Of a stretch of DNA of 64,000 nt, positions 19,920 to 48,208 are shown piece after piece; the stretch's first letter is position 1; each line of letters starts with the position of its first letter. The notes under the pieces are model-generated. The model was given only the letters and a program-made list of their open reading frames with translations. It was not told where the DNA came from and ran no database searches. This DNA is from Planctomycetota bacterium (GTDB lineage Bacteria > Planctomycetota > GCA-002687715 > CAIWVZ01), in contig JBGANV010000001.1 in NCBI GenBank assembly GCA_044222185.1, positions 1,789,337 to 1,853,336 on the forward strand. Direction: 5' to 3'. The position numbers and the translations under genes are program-made.

Positions 19920-20987
19920 TCACGACTCCTTCGCGAGAGTCCGGAGGATCGCTGCGGCGCACTGATCGAGCGGGACGACTTCTTCCGCGCCGCCAAGGGC
20001 GATCGCTTCCTTCGGCATCCCGAACACGACGCAGCTCGCCTCGTCCTGGGCGAAGGTGTGAGCCCCGGCCTTGCGCATCGCGAGTAGCCCCTTCGCGCCG
20101 TCGTTTCCCATCCCGGTGAGGATCGCGCCCACGGCGTTGCGCCCGAGGAACTGCGCGCACGAATCGAAGAGCACGTCCACGGACGGGCGGTGGTGATTCA
20201 CTGGCGCGCCCTCGAAGACGCGCACCGAATAGTGGGCACCGCTGCGCTCGACGGCCATGTGGAAGTTGCCCGGCGCGATCAACGCCTGGCCGGGAATGAT
20301 GCGATCCCCGTTCGCCGCCTCCCGGACACGGATCTTGCACAGCCCGTCCAGTCGTTCGGCAAACCACTTGGTGAACTTCTCGGGCATGTGCTGGACGATG
20401 ACGATGCCGGGGCAGTCTGCCGGAACGCGCGTGAGGACCTCGCGGAGGGCTTCCGTCCCACCGGTCGAGGCGCCGATGGCGATGACCTTGTCGGTGCTTC
20501 GGATGAGCGCGCCCGACGGCGCCGGCGCGGACGGCGCCACATCACCGACGGTGCGAACGATCGACGGTCGCGAGCGCGGCCGAAGCCGAGCCGTCGCTGC
20601 ACTCTTCACCTTGGCGACGATCTCTCCCGCCAGGTCCACGGTGCCGGCGCGAACGTCGATCTTCGGTTTCGTGACGAAGTCGACGGCGCCGAGCTCCAAC
20701 GCGCGCAGCGTCGTCTCGCACGAGCGCTCCGTGAGCGAAGAAATCATGACGACCGGCATGGGATAGGCGCGCATGAGCTTCTCGAGGAAGCTCAAACCGT
20801 CCATGCGTGGCATCTCCACGTCCAGCGTCAGCACGTCGGGCTTCAGCTGCCGGATCTTGTCGACGGCCGCCACCGGATCGGGGGCCGACCCCACGACTTC
20901 GAGATCCGAATCGCGCGCCAGGATGTCCGTCAGGAGCTGGCGAACCAGGGCCGAGTCGTCGATGACCAGAACTTTCGTCTTCGCCAT
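19920..20987 (-). CDS. cheB: Chemotaxis response regulator protein-glutamate methylesterase CheB
   Basis: REC domain ([13 protein letters not shown]...DVEMPRMDG) plus C-terminal methylesterase with GASTGG and the catalytic His/Asp region. Confidence 0.9.
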
Positions 20988-21012: not shown

Positions 21013-22785
21013 TCAAGGCAGATGGACTTCGGGGTCCCTCTGCCACTGGAATTCGGCCACGACCTCGTTGCCCGCACCACGGAAGGCCACGCTGCGGCAG
21101 ATGGATGCCACGAGCGCGATCCCTCGCCCGCTGGGCGCCGTGAGCGAACACTCGGCGATCGCCTTCAGGGACGAGTAGTCGAATCCCTTGCCGCTGTCCT
21201 TGATGGAGATGGTGAGCAGGCCGCCGCCCTCGACCGTGACGTGATCGAGCTTGATCTTGACGCTCCCGGACTTGAGCTTGGCGAGCGCCGCCGCGCGAGC
21301 GGTGAAGTACTTCTCGAACCCATCGGGTTCGCCCTTCAGGTTCGAACTGAGCCCGAGGACCCCGTGATCGATCGCGTTGCTGACGAGCTCGGCGAGTACG
21401 AGGAACAGGGTCTCCTTCTGCCCCTCGAATCCCTGGAGGTCCGTCACGAGACGGCCCAGCAAAGGGAGAGGGTCCGTGGACTGGATCGCGTCTGCGTGGA
21501 GCTCGAGCTCCACGGTCCAGTGCGTTGACGGCCGCACACCCGGACCGAGCCCACGCGGCGAGCGACGCTTGCCTTGGATGGCCGCGTCTGCTCGAAGCTC
21601 GATCAGGGTCTGATCGTCCGCCTGGGCCTGGCTCTCGCCGAATGCCGTCACGGCTTCGATCAGGGCCTCGAAGGCCCGCTCCGGGTCCTCCTGCGCAGTG
21701 AGGATGGCAGCGATGCGATCCATCCCGAACATCTCTCCCGCGCGATTCGACGCCTCCGGAAGGCCGTCCGAGAAGAAGTAGATCCGATCACCGTCCTTGA
21801 TGCTGACGGTTTCGGTTTCGAGGTTCAGCGCCGTGTCGTCCAGGATGCCGAGCGGCGGCTGGAGCGATCGGAAACTTGCGACGGCCCCCGCCCTCGGACG
21901 AACGATCATTCCGTCGGGCACACCGGCATTCAGCACGGTGAGCGCGCCGCCCACCGCGTCCAACTCGATCAGGCATGCAGCGAGGAACAGGCCGGCGGGC
22001 ATGACCGCCTTCAGCCTGCGGTTGATCTCGCGCGCGATGTCGAGGATCGAGAAGCCGCGCTCCGTCATGCTGTAGAAGATCTCGGCGACTGACAGCGTGC
22101 CCGTCGCGGCCGGCAACCCGTGACCGGCGAAGTCCCCGATGAGAGCGTTCTGCGCACCGTTGGGACGCCAGGCTGCCAGGAGGAGGTCTCCGTGAAACAC
22201 CTCCGCGGGCGCCAGCAGGTACTTGATGTTGGGGGCGTCCAGGTTCCCCGTGCGTACGAGTCGTTTGAACAGGTCGCGAGCAACCTCCTGCTCGCGGCGG
22301 ACACGCGCGCCGTGTCGGTTGAGTTCGTCGTTCTGCGCGATGATCCGGTCGTTCAGCCGGCTGATCCGGACCATGGCAGCCATCTTCGCCTCGAGCACCG
22401 TCGGGCGGAGCGGCTTCGAGAGGAAGTCGTCTCCCCCGGCTTCGACGCACTTGGCGATGCGCGCATCGCTGAGCGTGTTCGTCACGAAGATGATCGGCAC
22501 GAACCGAGCGCCGGAGATCGCCTTGATGCGCCGGGCGGACTCGAACCCGTCCATGACGGGCATTTCGCAATCCAGGATCACGCAGTCCGGCTGGTGGAGC
22601 TGGTAGAGGACCACCGCCTCCGCGCCGTTCTTGCTCTCCACGACGTCGCAGTTCTGCGAACGGAGCATGGCCACGAGGATCATGCGATCCGCGCGGTCAT
22701 CCTCGGCGATGACGACCTTCAGGCGCTTGCGGGGCGCCGCCCTCACGAGGTCGCACGTCCCGGGAATCGTCGCAGTCCCGCTCAT
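21013..22785 (-). CDS. Tripartite receiver - PP2C (SpoIIE/RsbU-like) phosphatase - RsbW-like GHKL serine kinase/anti-sigma domain protein
   Basis: N-terminal REC ([11 protein letters not shown]...DCEMPVMDG). Central PP2C-like region (GDFAGHG, FFSDG). C-terminal HATPase-like boxes ([25 protein letters not shown]). Confidence 0.8.
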
Positions 22786-22798
22786 GGGAGCGTCGCCC

Positions 22799-23104
22799 TC
22801 AGGCGATCTTGAAGAGCTTCTGGAAGTTGGCGACGTTCAAGATCTTCGCCACGTTGGGCTTCGCCCGGGCGAGCGTGACGTCAGCACCGTCACCGCCCGC
22901 ATCCTGCTTGAGAAGCAAGAGCATGCCGAGCGCTGAGCTGTCCATGTACTCGGTCCGTGACAGGTCGACGACGACCCGGCGCGGCTTCGGCTGAACGTCG
23001 GCGTACGCGTGGCGGAATTCGTTGTGGACGCTGAAATCGAATCGACCTTCGACTCCGATCGTGATCACGCCGCCGTCCGGCGACACCGTTGCACTGATAG
23101 CCAT
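22799..23104 (-). CDS. STAS-domain anti-sigma-factor antagonist (SpoIIAA/RsbV-like)
   Basis: 101 aa. DLSRTEYMDSSALGMLL motif with the conserved phosphorylatable Ser context. Confidence 0.8.
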   Translation of the reverse strand: MAISATVSPDGGVITIGVEGRFDFSVHNEFRHAYADVQPKPRRVVVDLSRTEYMDSSALGMLLLLKQDAGGDGADVTLARAKPNVAKILNVANFQKLFKIA

Positions 23105-23137: not shown

Positions 23138-24778
23138 TCAGAACAATGTGACGTTGTCCGCCGGCGCGGCCTCGGCAGGCTTGGCCGCCACGTGGCAGTA
23201 CTCCGACTCCTGCGCGAGGACCGACGTGAGGTTGACCGCACCGCGAGCTGCGACCTGGGCGCGGCCCGTGTGCGTGTAGAAGCGCACTTCGAGGGGGAAC
23301 GTTCCCCCGAGTTTCTCGCTGTGGATCGGGATCTTCTCGGTCGACAGGAACTGTTTGATGAACTCGGCGTTCTTCTCACCGACCTTCGAAGACATGACTT
23401 TTGCGTCGATGACGTGAGCGCCGCCGAACACCTTGGCGACGAAGCGGCGCCGATCGCCGCCGAGTTTCATGATCTCGTTGATGAGGACTTCCATCGCGTT
23501 GATCCCGAAACGCGTCGGCATGCCGTAGTCGTCGCCGCCATCCGGTAGGAGGAAGTGATTCATGCCTCCGACCTTCTTCTCGGGATCGAACAGGCACGCA
23601 GCGATGCAGGACCCCAGCAGCGTCTTCACGACTGCCGGCTCCCGACTCGCAAAGACGCCGCCAATCTCGATGCGCTTCTCGAGGATCTTCGGCTCGGTCG
23701 GCGTCGCCAAAGGACGGTTGGCCAGGCTCGCCAACGTGGGCAGCGGCGCCCCCGCTCGCGGGCTCGCCGGGACCGTGGGCGCCGGGCGGGACGCGGGCTT
23801 GTCCGCGCGGCGCTCCAGGCCTGGCGGGCGCTTCAACGCGGCCGGAGCCTGCGGAGCCACCTCCGGTCCCGCGCCGTCAGTCGGCGTCCGCGAGTAGATC
23901 GTCGGGCCCGCCGGCTTGTAGAGCTCCGGCATCCAGTGGAGCGTTTCCGAGTGCCCGATGATCAGGAACCCCGTGGGGTCGAGGAGCGTCGAGAACCGTT
24001 TGAAGAGGGTCTCCTGCGTGGGCCGGTCGAAATAGATGACGACGTTGCGGCAGAAGATCAGGTCGAACGGACCGCGGACGGGCCACGTCGGCGCGATCAG
24101 GTTTGCCTGGCGGAAGGTGATCAGGCGCTTCACCTCGGGGCGGATCTTGAACAGCCCGTCGGACTTGCCGGTCCCGCGAAGGAGGTACTTCGCCTGCAGC
24201 GCCTGCGGGATCTCGGCGATCGTCTCGGCCGGATAGACGCCGGCCTCGGCCTTCGCGAGCACCTCGGTGTCGATGTCCGTGGCGACGATGCTCACGTCCC
24301 AGCCACGCGTCGCGTTCGCCTGCTCGAGCAGCGTCATGGCGAGCGTGTAGGGCTCTTGTCCGGTGGAGCACGCCGCGCTCCAGATCTGCAAACGCTTCGG
24401 ACCACCGCTTCGCGCCCGCTCCGCGATCGCCGGGATCACCGTGTCCGCGACGAACTTGAAGTGATGCGGCTCGCGGAAGAAGCCGGTCTTGTTCGTCGTG
24501 AGCGCGTTGATGAACTCGCGCATCTCCGCCGAGTCCGTCGCCTGCTTCTCGAGCAACCGGTGGTAGGCCCCGTAGGTATCCACGCCGTTCTCGCGGAGTC
24601 GCGAGCGAAGTCGCGACGCCACCAGCACCTGCTTGGCGTCGGGCAGAGAAATCCCGAAGACGCGGTAGGCCAACGCACGAAGGGCCACGAACTCCTCGTA
24701 GTGCAGGGCCGGCCCACCGCCGAACTCGACGGTCGCACCAGGCTGCGCACTCTGCTTGTCGTCGCCACTCACGTCCAC
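23138..24778 (-). CDS. CheR methyltransferase fused to CheD chemoreceptor glutamine deamidase
   Basis: Residues ~90-290 match CheR (FFREPHHF, IWSAACSTGQEPY, IFCRNVVIYFD). After a P/A-rich linker, residues ~370-520 match CheD (LGSCIAACLFD, GGMNHFLLP). Confidence 0.85.
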   Translation of the reverse strand: MDVSGDDKQSAQPGATVEFGGGPALHYEEFVALRALAYRVFGISLPDAKQVLVASRLRSRLRENGVDTYGAYHRLLEKQATDSAEMREFINALTTNKTGFFREPHHFKFVADTVIPAIAERARSGGPKRLQIWSAACSTGQEPYTLAMTLLEQANATRGWDVSIVATDIDTEVLAKAEAGVYPAETIAEIPQALQAKYLLRGTGKSDGLFKIRPEVKRLITFRQANLIAPTWPVRGPFDLIFCRNVVIYFDRPTQETLFKRFSTLLDPTGFLIIGHSETLHWMPELYKPAGPTIYSRTPTDGAGPEVAPQAPAALKRPPGLERRADKPASRPAPTVPASPRAGAPLPTLASLANRPLATPTEPKILEKRIEIGGVFASREPAVVKTLLGSCIAACLFDPEKKVGGMNHFLLPDGGDDYGMPTRFGINAMEVLINEIMKLGGDRRRFVAKVFGGAHVIDAKVMSSKVGEKNAEFIKQFLSTEKIPIHSEKLGGTFPLEVRFYTHTGRAQVAARGAVNLTSVLAQESEYCHVAAKPAEAAPADNVTLF

Positions 24779-24846: not shown

Positions 24847-26388
24847 TCAGCCCTGCGTGTCGACCTTGAACTGGCCGACGAGCTGGTCGAGCTCCCGCGA
24901 CTGCGTGGAGAGCGCCGATGCCGTGCCGGAGATCTCCTCCGCCTGGCTCGCGTTCGCCTGGGTGATCTTGTCGATGTCGGAAACGGCATGGTTGATCTGG
25001 CCGACGCCCGTCGCCTGCTCCTTCGACGCTGCGGCGATCTCGGCGACGATGGCCGTGACGCGTTTGACGGCGTCCACGATCTCCGTGAGGGTCGACCCCG
25101 AGCGGTTGACCAATTCCGTGCCGGCTCCGATCTTGGAGACCGAATCCTGGATGAGTCCCTTGATCTCGCGCGCCGCGCTCGCGCTTCGCTGCGCAAGACT
25201 GCGAACCTCGGCCGCCACAACGGCGAAACCCCGACCCTGCTCGCCGGCGCGCGCAGCTTCCACCGCCGCGTTCAACGCCAGGAGGTTCGTCTGGAACGCG
25301 ATCTCGTCGATCGTCGTGATGATGTCGGCGATCTTCCGGGAGGACTGATTGATCTCGGACATGGCCGAGACCGCGCTGCCGACGACCGAGCCACCGGCTT
25401 CGGCGACCGTGCGGGCTCCGTCGGCGAGCTGGTTCGCCTGGCTGGCGCTGTCGGCATTCTTGCGAACGGTCTGCGTGAGCCGCTCGAGGTTCGCCGCGGT
25501 TTCCTCCAGTCCGGACGCCTGACGCTGGGCGCCGTCCGAGATCTGCGACGTTGCTGCCGAGAGTTCCGTTGCCGCGACGCCGACGCTTCTCGACGCGTTC
25601 CGCAGGTCGAGCATGATCTTGTGGAGGTGCGTCATGAAGACGTCGAACCACTTGCTCAACTCGCCGATCTCGTCGGTGCGTTGAAGCGCCAGGCGCTTCG
25701 TCAGATCCCCTTCGCCCTCGGCGATGTCTCGAAGCTGCTCGACGACGTGACTCAACGGACGGGTGATGCTGCGCGCCACGAAGTACGCGAGACCTGCGAG
25801 GATGGCAGCGGTTGCCGTCACGATGGTGAGCAGCAGGACGTTCGCATGATTCTGGACTTCGGCGGCGTGCTCGGACGCCTTCGTCGCGGACTTCTCGATC
25901 AGATCGCTGAGAGAACTCATCCGTCCCTCGAGGACTCCGAACGTCTCGAGGAACTTGGGAAGCTCCGCCTTGGCCGCATTGGCGTCGGAGACGGCGAGCT
26001 TGACGGTCTTCTCCGCGTGTGCGATGTAGGATTCGAGTTCGGGCTTGACCCCGTTCAGAGCCGAGTGGAGCTCGGCATCCAGCGGGAGTTTGGCGTTCTC
26101 CTCCAGCTCATCACGGAAGTGCCCGGCGTGCTCCGCGAGGTCCTTTGCCACGGCCTCGTGCTCCTCGGGAGACTGGGCGAGGATCGCGGCCAGCACGTCC
26201 GCGCGGAGCGCGTCGTGCATCATGTCGCTCTCCATGTGGTGCCGGATGGCCGATGTCGTCGTGTTCACGGCTTCCGTGCCATCGGCGACGGACTCGAGCC
26301 CCCACCACGAGGTGCCGCCCAGGACGAGCGCGAGCACCAGGCCGGACATCCCGATTCCGAATAGCTTCGTTCGAATCTTGAGCTGCAT
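24847..26388 (-). CDS. Methyl-accepting chemotaxis protein (2 TM, HAMP, MCP signalling domain)
   Basis: Conserved MCP signalling-domain core ([41 protein letters not shown]). Confidence 0.85.
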
Positions 26389-26506: not shown

Positions 26507-28366
26507 TCAGAAGTCCTCGAACGTCAGATCCGACGGGTTGCTCGTCGAATCGCCCTGCATGTCGCGTCCGAGAGCCGCGAGTCCGGATTCGACCTGCGCT
26601 GCGTTGTCCTGGAACCTCGGCTTCGACGCCGGCACCGAAGACGCGGCGGCACGAGGTGCCTGGCTCGGAGCCTTCGCCGCGGCGTCTCGAGCCTTGGGCG
26701 ACGGATTCACCGGGCGCGCCCTCGGCGCCTCGTGAGCCGGCGGCGGCGTTGGGGCGGCGCCGTCCAGGTCCACTCGGAACCGGGCGACGATCCCGCGGAG
26801 TTGCTCCGATTGCTGGGCGAGCGACTCTGCCGTCCCGGACATCTCCTCCGTCTGCGACGCGTTCGACTGCGTGACGCTGTCCATCTGCGAGACCGCGCGG
26901 TTCACCTGCTCGACGCCCGTCGCCTGCTCGCGCGATGCGGAGGCGATCTCCGAGATGATGTCCGTGACCCGCTTGACGGCCGTCACGATCTCGTTCAGCG
27001 TCGCGCCCGACTTGTTGACGAGCTCGGATCCGCCCTCGACCTTCTGGACGGAATCCTGGATGAGGCCTTTGATCTCCTTGGCCGCGGTCGCGCTGCGCTG
27101 CGCCAGGTTGCGGACCTCGGAAGCGACGACGGCGAACCCACGTCCCTGTTCACCGGCGCGCGCCGCCTCGACGGCGGCATTCAGCGCCAGCAGGTTCGTC
27201 TGGAACGCGATCTCGTCGATCGTCGTGATGATCTCTGCGATCTTCTTCGATGCCGTGTTGATCTCGCCCATGGCCGTGACGGCCTCGTTGACGACGCGCC
27301 CGCCGTTCTCGGCGACGTCGCGTGCTGCGCCGGCGAGCTGGCTCGCTTGCTGCGCGTTGTCGGCGTTTGCCTTCACGGTCGAGGTCATCTCTTCGAGCGT
27401 GGCGGCCGTCTGTTCCAGGCTCGACGCCTGTTCCTGGGCGCCAGCCGAGATCTGCGTGCTGGCCGCCGAGAGTTCACGCGACGCGGTCGCCACACCCTCT
27501 GCAGTGGACCGCACCTGGCAAAGCGTCGTGCGCATGGACGAAATGGCGTCGTTCAGTGCGCTCGACATGCGACCGACCTCGTCCGTCGTCTTGATCTGAA
27601 GCGACGACGTGAAGTCGCCCTGTGCGACGTGCGACAGGACCTCCGCGGCGCGACCCAGAGGGCGGGCGATCTGCGTCGAGATCAGCGTCCCGAGAAGCAA
27701 CCCGCCGATGATCATCAAGACGGTCGCGATGATGCTCGTCTGGATGGCGCCGCGTGCCTCGGCGCGGCCGTCCTCGTTCATGTCGCTCGCGACCGCACCG
27801 ACGGTCGTGACCAGTTCCTCGAGACTCGAGGCGGCGACCTCCAGGGCCGCCCGCGTCGAGACGATGCCCTTGTGAACGCCGGCCTCGACGGCTTGATGCT
27901 CCTCGGGAGTCGTGGCCGTCCAACGCTGCGCGGTCTTCGCCGCGACGTTCGCCCCCTGCTCGAAGTAGCTGGCGACCGCCTTGCGAACGGACTCCAGGTC
28001 GTGTGTCTCGCTGCGGCCGGAACGCGAGACACGCAGAACGGTCGCGGCGTAGGCATCGAGCGACGCGGTCACCGCCTTGCGGATCTGCTCCTGGGCCGCG
28101 ACCGCCTTGTCGCAGCCGGCGCGGTCCGTGGACTCGGCCACCACCTCCGTGGCGTCCACGAAATGCGCGAGGTTCGCGGCCGCCTTCGCCAGGTCGTTGC
28201 TCGCGACGGTGTAGTCTTCGTACACGACCCGGAGTGACTCCTGGACGTGAAGAATGTCGATGCACGTGACCGCACCGCCCACCGCGGCGATCACGCAGAC
28301 CGACGCGAACGACAGCATCAACTTCGCTTTGGTGTTGAGATTCCAGAACCAGCTCATTGCATCCAA
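26507..28366 (-). CDS. Methyl-accepting chemotaxis protein (larger periplasmic domain, HAMP, MCP signalling domain)
   Basis: Same conserved signalling core ([41 protein letters not shown]). N-terminal TM helix. Confidence 0.85.
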
Positions 28367-28408: not shown

Positions 28409-28927
28409 TCACTCCGCGGCCATTCCACTCGCCGGCAAGTCGATCCCGAGCCCCGCGACCTTGTCGATGTCGAGCAGCGCGATGAGACGATCGCCGGACT
28501 TGGCCAGTCCCCGCAGGAACGACACGTCAGCACCGCCCATCTCGGGCGCGGGGTCGATGTCGTTCGCCGGAACGTCCAGCACGTCGGACACCGCGTCGAC
28601 GACCAACCCGGTGACCTTCGATCCGACGTTGACCACGATGATCACCGTGAATTGGTTGTAGTCCGCCTTCGCGAGCGCGAACTTCATTCGCAGGTCGAGG
28701 ACCGGCACCACCGTCCCGCGGAGGTTCATCACCCCTTTGATGTGCGGCGGGGTATTGGGAATGGGGGTTATCGCGGAGAACCCTTTGATCTCCTGCACGC
28801 GCAGGATCTCGAGGCCGTATTCCTCGGACCCGAGCATGAAAGTGAGGTACTGGTTGATCGCCTCATGACGATCGGCCACCTGCGTCACCAATTCCGTTGT
28901 CTGCTTCACGTTTCCATCCCCCCTCAC
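28409..28927 (-). CDS. cheW: Chemotaxis coupling protein CheW
   Basis: 172 aa single CheW domain (YLTFMLGSEEYGLEILRVQEI...). ATGA overlap with cheA. Confidence 0.9.
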   Translation of the reverse strand: MRGDGNVKQTTELVTQVADRHEAINQYLTFMLGSEEYGLEILRVQEIKGFSAITPIPNTPPHIKGVMNLRGTVVPVLDLRMKFALAKADYNQFTVIIVVNVGSKVTGLVVDAVSDVLDVPANDIDPAPEMGGADVSFLRGLAKSGDRLIALLDIDKVAGLGIDLPASGMAAE

Positions 28928-31017
28928 GCCACACCAACCGGGACATTCACCTCGGATTCGACGCCGCGCACGACTCCCGTGCCCGTCGATTGAGCGATAC
29001 GTACCAGCCCACCCACGTCGAGGATGAGCGCCACACGCCCATCACCCATGATCGTCGCGCCCATCACGCCTTCGACGCGACGGAAGTTCGTGTCGAGTGT
29101 CTTGATCACGACCTGCTGCTGACCGAGAAGCTCGTCCACCAGGATCGCGACGCGGTCGCCCTGGTTCTCGACGATGACCACGATCCCGTCGGATGGATTC
29201 TCCGACCGCGGTGGAACACCGAGCACGCGGTGGAGCCGGACGAGGGCTCGCGCCTCGCCCCGGACCATCACGACCTGACCGCGTCCGAGCACGGACTTGA
29301 TCTGCTCGGGCCGTGGCCGCAGCGATTCGACGATCGACACGAGCGGCAGTACGAACGACTGATCACCGACGGCCAGCGTCAATCCGTCGAGGATCGCCAG
29401 CGTCAGCGGGAGCTTGATCACGAATCGCGACCCTTCGCCCTTGCGCGTGACGATGCTCACGGTGCCGTTGAGGGCCTCCACGTTCTTCTTGACGACGTCC
29501 ATGCCGACCCCGCGCCCCGACACGTCCGTGACTTTGTCCGCCGTCGAGAACGCCGGCTCGAAGATCATCTGGTGAATCTGCTCGTCGCTCACCTGGTCGT
29601 CGGGCCGCAACAGTCCGCGCTCGATGCCCTTCTTGCGGATGCGCTCCGTGTTCAGCCCACGGCCGTCGTCGGAGACCTCGATGACCACGGTGCCACCTTG
29701 CGTGGATGCCGCGAGCCGGATGGTTCCCTCTTCGCGCTTTCCAGACGCCAGCCGGTCCTCGGGCCCCTCGATGCCGTGATCCAGCGCGTTGCGGATCAAG
29801 TGCGTCAGTGGGTCGCCGATGCGTTCGACAACGCCCTTGTCGAGCTCCGTCTCCTCACCGGCCATCACCAGGTTGACCTTCTTGTTCAGCGTGCCGGCGA
29901 GATCCCGCACGACTCGGGGGAAGCGGCTGAAGATGCTGCCGATCGGCACCATCCGCACGGACATCACGCGCTCCTGCAGCTCGCGCGTGTTTCGCTCCAT
30001 CTGGGCGACGGCCTCGTTCAGCCGCGCCAGCTTCTCCGTCGTGAAGTGAGTCACGACGTCGGACACCATGGACTGAGAGATCACGAGCTCGCCGACCAGG
30101 TTGATGAGCTTGTCGATCTTGTCGACCGCGACCCGGATGGATGCGCCGTCACCGGCGGGGGTTCGTGGAGTCGGCTCGCCCGTCTTCGCAGGCGGAGCCT
30201 TTTCGCTCCGCAGCACGAGTGACGCGTCATCCGCAGCCACCGGCTTCTTCGCTTCGGCCGCGGGTGCGGCGACGACGGGAATCTCCTGCGCCGGAGCCAT
30301 TCCGCAGCATTCGATCTTGATCTCGGCCCCGTCTTCCACGAACGCGAAGGCGTCGCGAATGCGTTGCTCGTCGACCCGCCCCTCGAGCCGCAGGCTCCAG
30401 CTCAAATGGCAATCGAGCGGCTCCAGATCATCGAGGGCGGGGATGCGAGCGAGATCGAGGGTCACGTCGGACAACGTTCCGAGCTCTCCGATCTCGCGGA
30501 GCACCAGCAGGGGATCCATGCCCTGCGTGAAGATGTTTCGGGCAGGGCGAAAGGAGATCTTCCAGGTCGAAGCGCCCGTCGCCGTGGGCCTGGCGGCGCC
30601 GGCCACCGATGCCCCGTGCGTGGGCGCACCGTGCTTCGCCAGCACCCCGTCGATTTCGCCCAGCACCTGGTCGACGTTGGACGGCGGCGCGGTGCCTTCC
30701 TTCGCCGACACGAGGAGCTCCAGGAGAACGTCTCGCGAGCGCAGGACGAGGTCGATGAGCGGCTTCGTCGCCGCGATCTCGCCTTCACGCATCTTGTCGA
30801 GCAGGCTCTCCAGCGAGTGGGTGAATCGGGTGACGCCCTCGAGCCCGAACGTTCCGCTCCCGCCCTTGATGGAGTGGGCAGCGCGGAAGATCTCGTTCAG
30901 GAGCTCCCGGTCGTCGGGGCTGGTCTCGAGCTTGAGGAGCGCCGTCTCCATGTTGGCGACGTGCTCGTTCGCTTCTTCGAAGAACGCTTCTCGGAACCGA
31001 TTGAGATCGATCTGCAT
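28924..31017 (-). CDS. cheA: Chemotaxis histidine kinase CheA
   Basis: Hpt domain with HSIKGGSGTFG. Dimerisation and HATPase domains (NALDHGIE, DDGRGL, GRGVGMDVV). C-terminal CheW-like domain. Confidence 0.9.
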   Translation of the reverse strand: MQIDLNRFREAFFEEANEHVANMETALLKLETSPDDRELLNEIFRAAHSIKGGSGTFGLEGVTRFTHSLESLLDKMREGEIAATKPLIDLVLRSRDVLLELLVSAKEGTAPPSNVDQVLGEIDGVLAKHGAPTHGASVAGAARPTATGASTWKISFRPARNIFTQGMDPLLVLREIGELGTLSDVTLDLARIPALDDLEPLDCHLSWSLRLEGRVDEQRIRDAFAFVEDGAEIKIECCGMAPAQEIPVVAAPAAEAKKPVAADDASLVLRSEKAPPAKTGEPTPRTPAGDGASIRVAVDKIDKLINLVGELVISQSMVSDVVTHFTTEKLARLNEAVAQMERNTRELQERVMSVRMVPIGSIFSRFPRVVRDLAGTLNKKVNLVMAGEETELDKGVVERIGDPLTHLIRNALDHGIEGPEDRLASGKREEGTIRLAASTQGGTVVIEVSDDGRGLNTERIRKKGIERGLLRPDDQVSDEQIHQMIFEPAFSTADKVTDVSGRGVGMDVVKKNVEALNGTVSIVTRKGEGSRFVIKLPLTLAILDGLTLAVGDQSFVLPLVSIVESLRPRPEQIKSVLGRGQVVMVRGEARALVRLHRVLGVPPRSENPSDGIVVIVENQGDRVAILVDELLGQQQVVIKTLDTNFRRVEGVMGATIMGDGRVALILDVGGLVRIAQSTGTGVVRGVESEVNVPVGVA

Positions 31018-31034: not shown

Positions 31035-31403
31035 TCAGGGAACGACCTTCTTGATGACCTGGAGGAGCTGATCAGGGTTGAACGGCTTGACGATCCAACC
31101 GGTCGCGCCTGCCGCCTTCCCCTCCTGCTTCTTCGTGTCGTTCGTCTCAGTGGTCAGCATCAGCACTGGCGTGAACTTGCACGCCGCACGGGTCCTGACC
31201 TGCTTGATGAACTGGATCCCGTCCATGACGGGCATGTTCAGGTCCGTGATGATGAGATCGACCTTCTGCTGTTTCTCGAGCTGGTCGATCCCTTCCTGCC
31301 CGTTGCCGCCCTCGAAGACGGTGAAGCCCGCCTCCTTGAGGGTGAAGGCCACCATCTGTCGCATGGTTGTCGAATCGTCGACGATCAGCGCCGCTTTGCT
31401 CAC
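31035..31403 (-). CDS. cheY: CheY-like single-domain response regulator
   Basis: GTG start preceded by GGAGAG. ALIVDDSTTMRQ...DLNMPVMDG...K motifs. 122 aa. Confidence 0.8.
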   Translation of the reverse strand: MSKAALIVDDSTTMRQMVAFTLKEAGFTVFEGGNGQEGIDQLEKQQKVDLIITDLNMPVMDGIQFIKQVRTRAACKFTPVLMLTTETNDTKKQEGKAAGATGWIVKPFNPDQLLQVIKKVVP

Positions 31404-31419
31404 GTCATGCTCTCCGCGC

Positions 31420-32526
31420 TCAGAACAGCTCGATGTCGCTCCCCGAATCGGCCGGCACTTCGCTGGTCGACCCGAGCGCCTGGGAAAGGATTTGCCGCTC
31501 CTGTTCCATCGTGTACCCGGCACGCAAACGGGCGACGAGTTCCTCCTGCCGGTTCTCGACCCAGATGGGGCGGGTCGGCAGGAGCGCCTCGAGGGGACCG
31601 TCGAGCGCCTGTTTCATCGAATCGAGTGCGCGCACGACGTGGTCGATGCGCTGATTGACTCGATCCTGGAATTGCATGGCCATGACGGCGCCCGCCACTT
31701 CGCCGGCGAGATCCTCGCCACGTTGCGAAGCCGTGCGGAGGGAGTCCTCCATGGCCTGGTGCGTCTCGCTGAGGATGCCGAAGGTGTTCTCCACTTCCGT
31801 CCGGCTCAGCAGAACTTCATTCATGTCTTCCGACGCGAGGACGCGAAGGTCCTCTACCGTCTCCTGAACCTCGTGCCCGACCTCGCCGATGATGTCGCGA
31901 ATGAGGCGAGCGATGTCGTCCGACCGCCGTGCGAGGCTCGAGATCTCGTCCGCGACGACGGAGAATCCCTTCCCCATCTCGCCGACGTGGACGGCCTGGA
32001 TCTTCGCGTTGATGGCGAGCACGCGAGTGACGTTGGCGATCTCGTTGACCTGGTCGAGCGTCTGAACGATCCGCTTCATTCCCGACGCGACGTCGTCCAT
32101 GCGGTAGACGACCTTCATCGAGAGCTGGCTGCCCTTCAGGATCCGCTCCATCAGGTGTTCCAGCGTGCTGCGGGTCGTGTTGATCAGCTTGTCGACGCCG
32201 CGCTTGTCGCCTCCACCTGACGCGCTGGGTTCGGCGCTGAGGACCTTGCGAGCCTCGGAGACGGACTCGCGGGCCCGCTTTGCCATTCCCTGGAAGTTGT
32301 TGCAGACGCCGACGACGGCCTGCTCGATCTGGCCTGCGGTCTGGCGGAGTTGCTCCGCGAGCACACTGAGGATGGGGCTGTGGGCCGCGGCCTCGGCTTC
32401 CAGGCTCTGCAGAAGCTGGGCGCGATCCGTGCCGGACGTCGAGTCCGCCACCAGCGTCCCCCCTGCGTCGTCGATCGGGGCATGGCTCGCATCGCCATGG
32501 GTGCCCGGTTCCTGCCGAGATGTCAT
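31420..32526 (-). CDS. Soluble (no TM) methyl-accepting chemotaxis-like protein
   Basis: MCP signalling-domain core variant (NEIANVTRVLAINAKIQAVHVGEMGKGFSVVADEISSLARRS). No hydrophobic segments. AGGAG RBS before MTSRQ. Confidence 0.7.
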   Translation of the reverse strand: MTSRQEPGTHGDASHAPIDDAGGTLVADSTSGTDRAQLLQSLEAEAAAHSPILSVLAEQLRQTAGQIEQAVVGVCNNFQGMAKRARESVSEARKVLSAEPSASGGGDKRGVDKLINTTRSTLEHLMERILKGSQLSMKVVYRMDDVASGMKRIVQTLDQVNEIANVTRVLAINAKIQAVHVGEMGKGFSVVADEISSLARRSDDIARLIRDIIGEVGHEVQETVEDLRVLASEDMNEVLLSRTEVENTFGILSETHQAMEDSLRTASQRGEDLAGEVAGAVMAMQFQDRVNQRIDHVVRALDSMKQALDGPLEALLPTRPIWVENRQEELVARLRAGYTMEQERQILSQALGSTSEVPADSGSDIELF

Positions 32527-32616
32527 CCTCTCGCTCTCCTTCGATCGCCTGAATCGCACTTACGAGCTATCGCACTCCGTTCGTCGTATCCCGAACGGCG
32601 AACCCACCGCGCCGGA

Positions 32617-32949
32617 CTACTCCAGATGCGAAAGGAAGCCGAGGCCGGCCATCCTCATCGCATCCGAAACCAGGCGGCTCGCCGGCCCCACGTGGAGCTT
32701 GCGTCCGTGCTTCTCGAGCGCCTGCTTGAGCGCGATCACCAGCTGGAATGCGCTGGCATCGAGCCGTTCGGCCTGCTCCCACTCCAGTTCCGTCTTGCCC
32801 TCGGAATCCAGCATTCCGATCGCTGCGCGCCGAAGCTCTTCGGCGTGGTCGAACGTCACCGATCCCGAAAGAACGAGCCGGATCCCTCCCGCGGGAAGGG
32901 GAACCACGCGCACGGGCGCATCCAGAGTTGCAGGTGTTGTCGGCTCCAT
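32617..32949 (-). CDS. STAS-domain protein (second anti-sigma antagonist-like protein)
   Basis: 110 aa. Its size and the ...DASAFQLVIAL... region are consistent with the STAS/SpoIIAA fold. It is the first gene of the che operon. Confidence 0.6.
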   Translation of the reverse strand: MEPTTPATLDAPVRVVPLPAGGIRLVLSGSVTFDHAEELRRAAIGMLDSEGKTELEWEQAERLDASAFQLVIALKQALEKHGRKLHVGPASRLVSDAMRMAGLGFLSHLE

Positions 32950-35176: not shown

Positions 35177-36211
35177 TCAGGAGGAGGTCTTCGGCGCGCT
35201 GCCCGAGCGGCGGAGGCGCGAGCGGATCGACTCGACGACGCGTTCCGCCACGGCCATGGCCTGAACGCCGTGCTCGCCCGTGACGCTCGGGGCGCGCCCC
35301 TCGCGGATCGCCGTGACGAACTCCGTGTCCTCACGCTTCAGCGGCTCGAACTCCTGGATCTCGAGCTTCTCGATCCGAAGCATGTCTTTCAGCATGATGT
35401 CGAGCGGATTGATCTTCGACAGGTCGAGCGTTCGCGCAGCGATCCTGGATTTCAGGTCCTCGCCCGGCCGGATGATCTGACCGGTCTTCTTGTAGAAGTC
35501 GAGCGTGACGTAGCCCTCGGGGGCGAACATCCGCATCTTGCGCTCGGTCTTCAGCGCGAGCCGCGACGCGGTGACGTTGGCCACGGCCCCGTTCTCGAAG
35601 GTGATGCGCGCGTTCGCCAGGTCCTCGAGGTCGCCCACGACTCCCACCCCGACGGCATCCACCGTCTCGACCGGCGACTGGGCCAGGTAGAGGATGATGT
35701 CGATGTCGTGGATCATCATGTCGAGTACGACCGAGATGTCCTGCGAGCGGAAGCTGAACGGCGACACTCGCTGAGCCTCGATGAATCGCGGCACGATGCG
35801 CCGTTCGAGGATCGCGACGATCGCGGGGTTGAAGCGCTCGACGTGTCCCACCATCAAGACCGTCCCCGCGCGGCGCGCGCGGTCGACGAGGTCCGTGGCC
35901 TCCGCGAGCGTCGATGCGAGAGGTTTCTCGACCATGCAGGCGATGCCGCGATCGAGGAGCCGACCTGCGACTGCGTGGTGATGGATCGTTGGAGTGGCGA
36001 CGACCGCGGCACGCACGCTCGGGGGGAGCTGATCCGGAGAGGTCAGCGCCGCGCACTTCGAGGCCTTGGCGATCTCCTGGGCACGCGCTCCGTCCTGGTC
36101 GACGACGGCCACGAGGCGGCACGTGGGGATCTCCGACAGGATTCGCGCATGGATCTTGCCCAGGTGTCCCACGCCGACGACGGCGACGTCGATGCGATCC
36201 CCCGAGGTCAC
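35177..36211 (-). CDS. Gfo/Idh/MocA-family NAD-dependent oxidoreductase (GnnA-like candidate)
   Basis: N-terminal IDVAVVGVGHLGKIHA Rossmann motif plus the EKP motif. The GTG start forms a GTGA overlap with the lpxA stop. Confidence 0.75.
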   Translation of the reverse strand: MTSGDRIDVAVVGVGHLGKIHARILSEIPTCRLVAVVDQDGARAQEIAKASKCAALTSPDQLPPSVRAAVVATPTIHHHAVAGRLLDRGIACMVEKPLASTLAEATDLVDRARRAGTVLMVGHVERFNPAIVAILERRIVPRFIEAQRVSPFSFRSQDISVVLDMMIHDIDIILYLAQSPVETVDAVGVGVVGDLEDLANARITFENGAVANVTASRLALKTERKMRMFAPEGYVTLDFYKKTGQIIRPGEDLKSRIAARTLDLSKINPLDIMLKDMLRIEKLEIQEFEPLKREDTEFVTAIREGRAPSVTGEHGVQAMAVAERVVESIRSRLRRSGSAPKTSS

Positions 36212-37032
36212 GACGGGTCCCGCGCCCGTCCGAAGGCCCCGCGCTCCGTTCGTCTGAGGAACTCGACCAGGTCGCCGACCTCCGCCGTCACGTTCGGCTG
36301 CAAAGCCACCTCGTCCAGGATCTGGGTGCGAGGACGCTTGCTCCGGAACACCGTGCGGTGGGCCTCGCGCAGCGCCGCGATCTGGTCTTCCGAATAGCCG
36401 TTGCGCTGAAGCCCGACGACGTTGACCTTCCACACCTTCGCCGGGTTGCCCTCGACGATCATGTAGGGCGGTACGTCCTGCACGATTCGCGTGAGTCCGC
36501 CGACGTACGCGAGGCGGCCGATCGTCGTGAATTGCTGGACGCAGGCGGCGCCGTTAAGGATCGCGCCGTCGTCGATCATCACGTGACCAGCGATCAGGAC
36601 GTTGTTCGCCATCACGACCTGGTCGCCGACGACGCAATCGTGCGCTACGTGGCAGCACGCCATGAGGAGGTTCCGGCTCCCGATGCGGGTGTAGCCGTCG
36701 CCTTTCATGGTGCCGCGGTTCAGAGTCACGAACTCGCGGATCTGGTTGTTGTCGCCGAGCGTGAGCCAGGTGATCTCGCCCTTGTACAGTCGATCCTGGG
36801 GATCGCCGCCGACGGCCGCGTGGTGGTGGATGACGTTGTCGGAACCCAAACGCGTGAACGGGCCGATGCTGCAGTTCGAACCGATGCGCGTGCGGTCTCC
36901 GATCTCGCACGCTTCGTTCACGACCGTGTACGGACCGATCGTCACTCCGGCGCCGATCACGGCAGTCGGGTGGATGACGGCGGTCGGATGGATCTCCACG
37001 GTTGCGCTCACGAGTGGAATCGCCTCACGCAT
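36208..37032 (-). CDS. lpxA: Acyl-ACP--UDP-N-acetylglucosamine O-acyltransferase LpxA
   Basis: IHPTAVI hexapeptide repeats and the C-terminal helical domain typical of LpxA. The start could be 7 codons downstream. Confidence 0.9.
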   Translation of the reverse strand: MREAIPLVSATVEIHPTAVIHPTAVIGAGVTIGPYTVVNEACEIGDRTRIGSNCSIGPFTRLGSDNVIHHHAAVGGDPQDRLYKGEITWLTLGDNNQIREFVTLNRGTMKGDGYTRIGSRNLLMACCHVAHDCVVGDQVVMANNVLIAGHVMIDDGAILNGAACVQQFTTIGRLAYVGGLTRIVQDVPPYMIVEGNPAKVWKVNVVGLQRNGYSEDQIAALREAHRTVFRSKRPRTQILDEVALQPNVTAEVGDLVEFLRRTERGAFGRARDPS

Positions 37033-38323
37033 CCATCAGCATGAACTTCATGATCGCCTCGCACGTCAGCTCGTCGTTGACGCTCGCGCGGCCGTAGACC
37101 TTCGCGGACTTCGCACGGATGGAGAGCGTTTCGCACTCCAGACGAAGCTGGTCGCCCGGCACCACGGGCCGGCGGAACTTGATGCGATCGATGGAAAGCA
37201 GCACGGCGACCTTGGCCGTGTTCAACAGTCTGCGCAGAAGCAGGACGCCTGAGAGCTGAGCCAAGGCCTCCACCTGCACGACTCCCGGAAGGATCGGCTG
37301 TCCCGGCCAGTGCCCTTCGAAGAACGGCTCGTTGATGGAGACGTTCTTCACTCCGACGGCGCGCTGGTATCCCTCGAGCGCCAGCACCCGGTCCACGAAG
37401 AGGAACGGGAACCGGTGCGGGATGATCTTCATGATCTCCTTGATGTCGAGGGCGGTCTCCGACGCCACCATCCCCTGCACCTCGAGCATCTTCAGCCGCG
37501 CAGCCAGGCGGGTGACGAGCTCGAGGTTCATCCGATGGCCGGTCTTCGTGGCGACGATGTGCGCCTCGAGGTCCGCATCGAGCATGGTCAGGTCACCGAG
37601 CAGGTCCAGCACCTTGTGCCGCGCGGGCTCGTTGTCGAGCCGGAAGGTGTTGTCGACGACGCCGGACTCGCCGATCACGAGCGTGTTCTTCGTGTTGGCT
37701 CCCAGGCCGAGCCCCATCTCCTGGAGCTTGCGCGCCTCGACCTCGAGGCAGAACGTGCGCGCCGGTGCGATCTGCGTGAGGAACTTCTCCTCGTTGACGT
37801 CGACGGTGACGAACTGTGGTTTGAGCCCCGGCGCGTTGCCGTAGTCGAGCGTGTAGGAGATGCGCAACGCGGCGGGGTGAGGGAAGGCCGTCAGCGTCGC
37901 GTCACCCTCGGCGACCGCGACCGGCTGATCGAGCTGGAAGACCTTGCGCGGCGCCTTCTGCTCCTGGCGCCCGGCGTCGCGGAGCCCCTCGGCGTACGGG
38001 AGTGCCGAGCCGTCCAGCCCCGGAAGCTCGGATCCGTCGATCTCCACCTGCACGTTGTCGATCCCGAGTACGTAGAGGCCGGCGGCGAGGTGCTCGACCG
38101 TCCCGATCTCGAGTTCGCCGTTGCTGATCGCCGACTGCCGATCGCGCTTGACCGCCAGGTCGCGCCGGAGCGGGATCCGCGGTTTGCCGGGCACGTCCGT
38201 GCGGATGAAGACGACGCCCGTGTCGGGCTCACCCGGCTTCACGACGACCGTGACCTCGCGCCCCGTGTGCAGCCCGATACCGCGGAAAGTGACGGAGTTG
38301 CGGACGGTGCGTTGATTTCTCAC
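37025..38323 (-). CDS. lpxC: Bifunctional LpxC (UDP-3-O-acyl-GlcNAc deacetylase) / FabZ (3-hydroxyacyl-ACP dehydratase) fusion
   Basis: N-terminal ~290 aa match LpxC ([21 protein letters not shown]..., [10 protein letters not shown]). C-terminal ~140 aa match FabZ ([13 protein letters not shown]...[15 protein letters not shown]). Confidence 0.85.
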
Positions 38324-39381
38324 GTCTTGTCACGAGCGTCGGAACGGCGTCCGAGCTCCTCCTCGATTTGATCCAGTCTCTTCGAGACCTCGCGCAGCTT
38401 GTGGTGCATCTCAGGGAGCTTGGTCTGGAGGACGCGCGCCCGTTGGCCGGCTCCGTATGGGATCGCTGGAATCCCGAGGAACTGGCCCCCGGCCTCCAGG
38501 TCCTTGCTGACCCCGCTCATGGCCGAAACCTGCGCCCTGTCGCCGATGTGGACGTGGCCCGCGACACCGACCTTCGCCGCGAGCACCACGTGGTGGCCCA
38601 GCGACGACGAGCCGGCGATGCCGGCCTGCGCGACGATGATGCAGTGCGGTCCGATGATGACGTTGTGTGCGACCTGGACGAGGTTGTCGATCTTCGTCCC
38701 CTTGCCGATCCGCGTTTCGGCGAACCGCGCGCGATCGACGCAGACGTTGGCGCCGATCTCCACGTCGTCTTCGATGACGACGGTGCCGATCTGGGGAATC
38801 TTGTGGTGAGTGCCCCCATCGTCCGTTGCGTAGCCGAACCCGTCCGATCCGATGACCGTGCCGGCGTGGATGATGACGCGGTCGCCGAGACGGACCTGAT
38901 CGAGCAGCGAGGCGTTGGGATGGACGAGGCAGTCGGACCCGATGACGACGTCGCTACCGATCACGGCGTTCGCCGAGATGATCGTGCGAGCGCCGATCCG
39001 GGACCGGGCGCCCACGACGGCGCCAGCGCGAATGGACGCCGTCACGTCGATGACCGCCGCCGGATCCACGATTGCGCGAGCGTGAACGCCACCCTCACCG
39101 CGCGCACGCGTACGCTGCCAGTAGTCCACGAGCTTCGCGAACGCGAGGTTGGCGTCCGGAACGACGATCTGTGTCGCGCGGCACCCCGCATGCTCTCGAT
39201 CGACGACGACGACCGAAGCCAGCGTCGAAGGGAGCAATGCGAAGAACTTCTCCTGCGCTACGAAGGTGACGTCACCCGCAGCCGCAATCTCGACGCCATT
39301 CACGTTCGAGACGAGGGCGGACGGGTCGCCGACCACCCGCCCTTGAAGCAGTGTCGCCAGTTCGCTGGCCGCGATCTTCAC
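38320..39381 (-). CDS. lpxD: UDP-3-O-acylglucosamine N-acyltransferase LpxD
   Basis: Long left-handed beta-helix hexapeptide repeat region with the characteristic LpxD N-terminal domain. ATGA overlap with lpxC-fabZ. Confidence 0.9.
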
Positions 39382-39388
39382 GCGCGGA

Positions 39389-39934
39389 TCACTTGTTCAG
39401 GCGTGCGACGACGTCGGAGGTGATGTCCCAGTCAGGCACGTAGAAGAGGACCGGGCGCACCATGATGTTGTTCATCACGTCGCGTTTGTTGTCGCCTTCG
39501 ATGCTGCCCGAGACGTACATGAACACCGCCTTGCACCCCTTGGCTTCGGCGACGGCCTTCACCTCGCGACGCACGTCGTCGTAGAGCTTGGAAAGCTCGG
39601 TGGCGAGCGTCTTCGACGTCTTGTACGTGATCGACGCTTCCTCGAGGTCCGCCTCGGCTTCAGCGAGCCGGATCTTCTTCTGCTGCTCGATCCACGGCTC
39701 GGAGCCCTTGGTGTAGAGGTCCAGAGTCTCCTTCAGCGCCGCGATCTTGCGCCGATCTTCGGTGAGGCTGCGCACCTTCTCGTCGACCTGGGTCTTGATC
39801 TGGTCCGAGAGCGTGACGGCTTTCTTGTATTCCTTCAGGCAACGCTCGACGTCCACGAACGCGAGCATTTGCTGGCCAAAGGCCGGAACGATCAACGCCA
39901 CGAAGGTTGCGAGAACGAGAGCAGCTCGCTTCAT
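39389..39934 (-). CDS. skp: Periplasmic chaperone Skp/OmpH
   Basis: Signal peptide followed by a Lys/Glu-rich coiled-coil. Canonical position between bamA and lpxD. Confidence 0.8.
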
Positions 39935-39978
39935 GAGGACTCCTCGATTGACAATTCCGCGGCTCGCCGCGGGCTCCA

Positions 39979-47963: not shown

Positions 47964-48035
47964 TTACCCTGCTAGGACTCGAACCTAGAATTGCAGGGCC
48001 AGAACCTGCCGTGTTACCAATTACACCACAGGGTA
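47964..48035 (-). tRNA. tRNA-Gln (anticodon CUG)
   Basis: Hand-folded cloverleaf: U1:A72 acceptor pair typical of tRNA-Gln, D arm GTGTAATTGGTAACAC, anticodon loop TTCTGGC, T arm CTAGGTTCGAGTCCTAG. CCA is not encoded. Confidence 0.75.
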
Positions 48036-48136
48036 GTGGTGGCGCGGGAGACGAGCCCCCGCCCGCGATCGAGCGAGACTGTATCGGTGGCCGAACGTGA
48101 TTCAACGGGACGCCATCGGGAGCGACCGCGCCGAAG

Positions 48137-48208
48137 TTACCCCGCCAGGACTCGAACCTGGAATAACAGGACCAAAACCTGCTGTGTTACCAATTACACC
48201 ACGGGGTA
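48137..48208 (-). tRNA. tRNA-Gln (anticodon UUG)
   Basis: Near-identical to the neighbouring tRNA-Gln, but with anticodon loop TTTTGGT and a compensating acceptor-stem change (CCCCG/CGGGG). Confidence 0.75.

Follow-up and report, generated by a model that had tools for sequence, protein, structure and literature searches.

A putative HsbR/CrsR-type receiver-gated STAS kinase/phosphatase in the che operon of a probable planctomycete

The response regulator encoded on the minus strand at 21013..22785 of the window (the whole stretch of 64,000 nucleotides that was analysed) is predicted to be a new member of the HsbR/CrsR partner-switch family, which has already been characterised, and is located in a known type of genomic context. 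As judged from its sequence and from analogy with the published systems, it very probably acts as a receiver-gated kinase/phosphatase of the HsbR/CrsR type on the STAS protein encoded upstream. The features of this family, namely the receiver Asp, the PP2C Asp residues, the GHKL boxes, the Ser of the adjacent STAS protein and full-length colinear homology, were all found here, and the STAS-regulator pair is embedded, as in the CrsR type, within an operon bearing cheY, cheA, cheW, MCP, cheR, cheD and cheB genes.

Domain organisation and the STAS partner

The assignment of the 590-aa target as an HsbR/CrsR-type response regulator is based on an ORF with an ATG start, which runs uninterrupted through 590 codons, on Pfam domains and on homologues. 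The plus-strand reading of the same interval was rejected, as its translation carries stops. Three domains, all above their Pfam gathering scores, follow each other on the minus strand in the order REC-PP2C-GHKL: Response_reg at aa 24-134 (22384..22716, 82.8 bits against a gathering score of 30.2), SpoIIE/PP2C at aa 212-399 (21589..22152, 133.4 bits against 25) and the RsbW/SpoIIAB-like GHKL domain HATPase_c_2 at aa 456-577 (21055..21420, 35.8 bits against 27.4). The GHKL region also matches Pfam HATPase_c with 30 bits. The sequence-only reading, which had described a single polypeptide combining a receiver, a PP2C phosphatase and an RsbW-like serine kinase, is thus confirmed by the Pfam scan for REC, SpoIIE/PP2C and HATPase_c_2, in which all three were detected with thresholds passed. 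The three GHKL motifs that it quoted were likewise all located in the translation, with [10 protein letters not shown] at residues 466-475, KDSGKGFD at residues 529-536 and GRGIALV at residues 553-559.

An AlphaFold2 model of the target, built on the alignment, showed three folded domains with a mean pLDDT of 82, in which a single helix of ~50 residues (aa 128-178) joins the receiver to the PP2C domain. Foldseek matched the REC and PP2C domains with RssB of P. aeruginosa (3f7a, 3eq2), the best structural match for this part, and the PP2C and kinase domains with the RsbU and RsbW domains of Rv1364c (3ke6) over 407 aligned columns, while further matches to the PP2C fold were SiaA, SpoIIE and RsbX. 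Rv1364c (PDB 3ke6) is also the solved structure that best matches the PP2C domain in sequence. For the C-terminal domain, the best sequence match in the PDB is 9qih, labelled 'SenB' or 'response regulator LvrC from Leptospira', and a literature search on 9qih found nothing.

The predicted substrate is the 101-aa STAS anti-sigma-factor antagonist encoded at 22799..23104, whose stop lies 13 nt upstream of the target start. Both Pfam models were matched above the cut-off (STAS_2 with 56.6 bits and STAS with 51.4 bits), and the NCBIfam model TIGR00377 (anti-sigma factor antagonist) was matched with 49.4 bits, just below its cut-off of 53.45. The STAS protein adjacent to the target, which the sequence-only reading had already recognised, is therefore real and lies on the same strand. 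It carries D55-S56-S57, and this D-S-S motif is the site of the phosphorylated serine in the STAS antagonist class.

Relationship to HsbR, CrsR and other known systems

HsbR of P. aeruginosa, consisting of receiver, PP2C and kinase/anti-sigma domains, determines whether the STAS protein HsbA is phosphorylated, and CrsR of S. oneidensis, built from these domains in the same order, has CrsA as its partner and is able to bind RpoS (PMC6482189). When HptB phosphorylates the HsbR receiver, the kinase is repressed and the phosphatase becomes active toward HsbA, in which Ser56 is the phosphorylation site, and the layout in non-aeruginosa pseudomonads is hsbA-hsbR-hptB (PMC5085249). In S. oneidensis, the class F7 locus che1 encodes CheA1, CheY1, CheW1, CheR1, CheD1, CheB1, two MCPs, CrsR and CrsA, and Che1 'could be involved' in the regulation of RpoS in this organism, a link given as possible (PMC9855816). 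As these three studies already cover both the arrangement and the che context, the novelty suggested in the sequence-only reading, which knew of no characterised example of the three-domain order in a che operon, is not supported, the order being shared by HsbR and CrsR (PMC6482189) and CrsR being located in che1 (PMC9855816).

In P. putida, one locus (L079) encodes a STAS protein, a REC-SpoIIE-HATPase_c_2 protein, an Hpt protein and then FliK, and owing to this hsbA-hsbR-hptB-fliK synteny the three-domain protein is taken as the HsbR orthologue. The target aligned colinearly with it over 563 residues with 9 gaps (E = 5e-135), the identity to the characterised family being moderate at 38%. The STAS protein at 22799..23104 aligned gap-free with the P. 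putida HsbA orthologue across its full 101 residues at 48% identity, with the Ser56 positions matching. The target thus shares with HsbR (PA3346) and HsbA (PA3347) the domain order, the upstream STAS gene and Ser56, whereas the Pseudomonas pair is followed by hptB in a flagellar region and the target pair lies in a che operon with no adjoining Hpt gene. The likeness to CrsR/CrsA, which is drawn from the published description, covers the three-domain order and the che-locus setting, with the difference that CheD1 and CheR1 are listed as separate proteins in che1 and CheR-CheD is fused in the window.

Several other systems bear part of this organisation. Rv1364c of M. tuberculosis has an N-terminal PAS domain in place of the receiver and a STAS domain fused at the C-terminus, and the domain order of SypE is kinase-REC-PP2C. 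Like the target, Rv1364c (3ke6) has an RsbU-like PP2C domain followed by a fused RsbW-like kinase. SypE, known for the SypA-SypE kinase relationship in Vibrio fischeri (PMC10120452), resembles the target in uniting an RsbW-like Ser kinase, a receiver and a PP2C domain in one polypeptide with a STAS substrate. The target differs from SypE in its REC-PP2C-kinase order, in which the N-terminal kinase and central receiver of the SypE type are not found, and in being located in a che operon instead of a polysaccharide locus. RssB consists of REC and PP2C-like domains and has no kinase domain; the target does not follow this two-domain architecture, as it adds the GHKL domain and retains the PP2C catalytic Asp. 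With RsbU/RsbW/RsbV and SpoIIE/SpoIIAB/SpoIIAA of B. subtilis, the target shares the logic of a PP2C phosphatase opposing a GHKL Ser kinase on a STAS Ser, but in B. subtilis the activities reside on separate proteins with no receiver, whereas in the target they are fused together with one. The sequence-only reading had presented the separation of phosphatase and kinase as the classical rule, which is true of the Bacillus systems but is no general rule, since HsbR, CrsR, SypE (PMC10120452) and Rv1364c (3ke6) depart from it.

The che operon around the target

The che-operon setting assumed in the sequence-only reading was borne out by the Pfam annotation of the neighbouring ORFs, which places the STAS protein and the target inside a complete che operon on the minus strand. 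In the order of transcription, the operon begins with a second STAS protein of 110 aa (32617..32949, STAS_2 with 46.1 bits), followed by a soluble MCP-like protein (31420..32559, MCPsignal), in which the domain scan found no 4HB or HAMP domain, a CheY-like single-domain response regulator (31035..31523 as the longest ORF, with REC from aa 46), CheA with Hpt, H-kinase_dim, HATPase_c and CheW-like domains (28924..31017), CheW (28409..28927) and two MCPs, each with 4HB_MCP_1, HAMP and MCPsignal (26507..28366 and 24847..26388). A CheR-CheD fusion of 546 aa (23138..24778, with CheR_N, CheR and CheD in one ORF), the STAS protein and the target come next, and the last gene encodes the CheB methylesterase (19920..20987, CheB_methylest with 227 bits, together with Response_reg). 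The CheB start at 20987 was taken from the gene call on a Logan contig; the longest ORF reaches 21080 and would overlap the target. All these genes are on the minus strand and tightly spaced, with 33 nt between CheR-CheD and the STAS gene and the 13 nt noted above between the latter and the target, and the genes downstream of the operon, a glycosyltransferase and an epimerase on the opposite strand, are unrelated. No sigma factor gene was found among the ORFs scanned between 11.7 and 42.5 kb of the window.

Two peculiarities of the operon were observed. CheR and CheD form one ORF with no in-frame stop and a Pro/Ala-rich linker, and the second STAS protein, when aligned to the STAS protein at 22799..23104, has D64-A65-S66 against D-S-S, with Ala at the canonical phospho-serine position.

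Distribution of the family

The 120 listed matches of the protein search are all full-length, 115 of them carry all three precomputed domains, and names such as 'fused response regulator/phosphatase' and 'HptB-dependent secretion and biofilm response regulator' occur among the listed homologues. In representative genomes, at least 588 confirmed relatives turned up among the 600 matches listed. In all of the 80 related loci that were kept, a STAS gene is located immediately upstream of the homologue.

The neighbours in these loci were probed by tblastn with the Che proteins of the window itself, and a locus was counted as che-linked when the CheA, CheW and CheR probes all matched within it. Che linkage was found in 15 of the 80 loci, and the remaining 65 have no che genes nearby. 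Nine of the che-linked loci share the order CheY-CheA-CheW-MCP-CheR-CheD-CheB-STAS-regulator, five loci of Magnetococcales have the order CheA-CheW-STAS-regulator-CheB-CheR-CheY, and in one (L075) the che cluster is divergently oriented. The order CheY-CheA-CheW-MCP-CheR-CheD in the window resembles that of the nine relatives, with CheB placed before the STAS-regulator pair in the relatives and after it in the window. CheR and CheD, fused in the window, are separate genes in these nine relatives. On a crude neighbour-joining tree, which has no support values, the che-linked copies are spread over at least four distinct positions, and the target sits on a long branch beside a homologue from a Planctomycetia MAG. 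The window, with a GC content of 67%, also encodes an LpxC-FabZ fusion, whose homologues bearing organism names are all from Planctomycetota MAGs (51-63% identity), the closer matches being 66-90% identical. The fusion and the GC content had pointed to Gemmatimonadota or the FCB group, a placement rejected on account of these named homologues, and a planctomycete is the probable, though tentative, host.

Proposed mechanism and phosphodonor

The sequence-only reading had cast the target as a one-protein, phosphorylation-gated bidirectional switch on the STAS protein, a proposal that homology supports and that would correspond to the published HsbR-HsbA Ser56 model (PMC5085249, PMC6482189). With D72 of the receiver unphosphorylated, the C-terminal GHKL domain would phosphorylate the STAS protein on Ser56, and with D72 phosphorylated the kinase would be repressed and the central PP2C domain would dephosphorylate the phosphorylated STAS protein, with the long helix (aa 128-178) as the probable route of the signal. 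Which partner the STAS protein binds would then depend on its phosphorylation, and the GHKL domain may in addition hold a sigma factor sequestered, in the way that CrsR sequesters RpoS. We infer both the direction of receiver gating and the phosphorylation of Ser56 from the published homologues. HsbR and CrsR are only 25.5% identical to each other and bind different forms of the STAS protein (PMC6482189), and owing to the latter difference the details are not transferable to the target with confidence.

The most likely phosphodonor for the target receiver would be the CheA of the operon, given that a complete set of che genes surrounds the pair; this assignment we infer from the operon context. 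The chemosensory pathway would then serve the control of transcription or lifestyle rather than, or besides, motility, and the separate CheY of the operon could compete for CheA.

Somewhat unlikely, though to be weighed seriously, is that the target, though of the same family, has its receiver phosphorylated by an Hpt protein or histidine kinase whose gene lies elsewhere, its location among che genes reflecting co-expression or an action of the STAS protein on the chemosensory array. The Pseudomonas donor is HptB, encoded beside hsbR (PMC5085249; L079), 65 of the 80 related loci have no che genes nearby, and the operon CheY offers CheA a conventional target. According to a comparative study, moreover, a REC-PP2C-kinase protein of Campylobacterota may act on a chemoreceptor via the STAS protein that it targets (PMC9239204). 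Against a donor other than CheA, no Hpt-only gene was seen beside the target, whose flanks are CheR-CheD, STAS and CheB, and the pair lies between cheD and cheB at gaps of 13-33 nt. In addition, the recurrence of che linkage in at least four places of the tree argues for a functional link.

Catalytic residues and integrity of the protein

The key residues of the receiver and of both enzymatic domains were examined in an alignment of 27 sequences (A1), comprising the target and 26 homologues that are 38-43% identical to it. In the receiver, D29, the phospho-acceptor D72 and T102 are invariant across the 27 sequences and K124 is at least 90% conserved. The metal-binding Asp residues of the PP2C domain, D200, D218 (in GDxxGHG), D340 and D390/D391, are invariant, all four positions being intact in the target. 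In the GHKL domain, E466 and N470 of the N box, D530-x-G532-x-G534 of the G1 box and G553-R554-G555 of the G2 box are invariant as well, including the glycines of the ATP lid. With the PP2C aspartates and the ATP-lid glycines all present, the reservation of the sequence-only reading that these motifs might be missing falls away. Between these N and G1 boxes, at about aa 476-520, all homologues in the alignment have a conserved insert that is specific to the family.

The PP2C-like domain of E. coli RssB is a pseudo-enzyme, and by comparison one of the enzymatic domains of the target might be inactive too, leaving a protein that mainly serves as an adaptor or anti-sigma factor. RssB proteins are among the top Foldseek matches, the HATPase_c_2 score is modest at 35.8 bits, and for the third domain of CrsR the published account stresses mainly an anti-sigma role through sigma binding (PMC6482189). 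This is nevertheless very unlikely and is rejected on sequence grounds, since the PP2C Asp residues and the N, G1 and G2 boxes do not vary among homologues with no more than 38-43% identity to the target, which points to selection on catalysis, and HsbR has been reported with both activities (PMC5085249).

That the three-domain ORF merely results from a frameshift or misassembly joining two neighbouring genes, a concern raised in the sequence-only reading, found no supporting point, has practically no probability left and is refuted, as the ORF is uninterrupted, the model folds into three domains, the identical protein occurs in the 2.26-Mb NCBI contig and in an independent Logan assembly (run SRR28480390), the 119 listed non-self homologues are all full-length (544-599 aa, query coverage 93-99%), and the domain junctions are gap-free in the colinear alignments with the A1 sequences and with the P. 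putida HsbR orthologue.

Output and significance

FlgM and HsbD are the known partners of HsbA, and RpoS is a partner of HsbR. To our knowledge, RpoS is not expected in Planctomycetota, and the output partner of the target must therefore differ from those of the characterised systems. A tentative and rather doubtful proposal is that, in a planctomycete lacking RpoS, the target links the array to another sigma factor or to a non-sigma target, and that the STAS protein encoded first in the operon could, as a non-phosphorylatable partner, compete for the kinase domain or serve as a decoy for it, forming a two-STAS switch. We know of no description of a two-STAS partner switch for HsbR or CrsR.

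For annotation, the target would be best named an HsbR/CrsR-type fused response regulator and STAS kinase/phosphatase instead of a new architecture, which by itself matters little beyond annotation. Its presence in a phylum in which RpoS is not expected implies that RpoS cannot be the output of the HsbR/CrsR family everywhere. The che-linked copies are scattered over Oceanospirillales-type genera, Magnetococcales, MAGs labelled Spirochaetaceae, Thiotrichales and Enterobacterales, and now a probable planctomycete, and this scatter lends support to the idea, as yet unproven, that certain chemosensory pathways act on gene expression by way of a partner switch.

Insert in the GHKL domain of the response regulator

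In the GHKL (RsbW-like) kinase domain of the HsbR/CrsR-type response regulator, residues ~476-520 (window 21244-21378, minus strand) form an insert that separates the N-box from the G1 box. This insert was present and conserved in every homologue, with K484, G489, F490 and Y493 invariant within it. The compact RsbW/SpoIIAB kinases are not known to carry it. PDB chain 9qih, which is listed under two names, SenB and LvrC from Leptospira, aligned across the insert region.

Other genes of the che operon

The first gene of the che operon encodes a second STAS-domain protein of 110 aa (window 32617-32949, minus strand), in which D64-A65-S66 occupies the position of D55-S56-S57 in the STAS partner of the response regulator, therefore placing Ala at the canonical phospho-serine position. 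This second STAS protein could serve as a non-phosphorylatable binding partner for the kinase domain of the regulator.

Between this gene and cheY lies the gene of an MCP-like protein (window 31420-32559, minus strand) with an MCPsignal domain only, in which neither a 4HB nor a HAMP domain was detected, and which may be a cytoplasmic receptor. When both are read as their longest ORFs, this gene and cheY share 104 nt, so the true start codon of one or the other probably lies further downstream.

CheR (CheR_N and CheR domains) and CheD are encoded by a single 546-aa ORF (window 23138-24778, minus strand), connected by a Pro/Ala-rich linker of ~70 aa without an in-frame stop. Among the related loci with che genes nearby, cheR and cheD were separate genes in all nine in which both were found, eight times in different frames and once with an intervening stop.

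Genomic surroundings

Outside the operon, the minus strand bears a pair of tRNA-Gln genes, one with a CTG and one with a TTG anticodon, ~100 nt apart (window 47964-48208), and an outer-membrane biogenesis cluster (window 36208-42462) encoding an LpxA-like acyltransferase, an LpxC-FabZ fusion protein (window 37025-38323, minus strand), LpxD, an OmpH/Skp-like protein and BamA. The named homologues of the LpxC-FabZ fusion all came from Planctomycetota MAGs, which gives a clue to the taxonomic placement of the window.

Among the matches listed, the closest named homologue of the response regulator, with 44% identity, was found in Ca. Nitrospira defluvii (related locus L002, 9210-11701), where its neighbours are not che or hptB genes but genes for a type IV prepilin peptidase and for the Flp pilus (RcpC/CpaB). 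These pilus-gene neighbours suggest that the family occurs in a third type of genomic setting, besides che and hptB.
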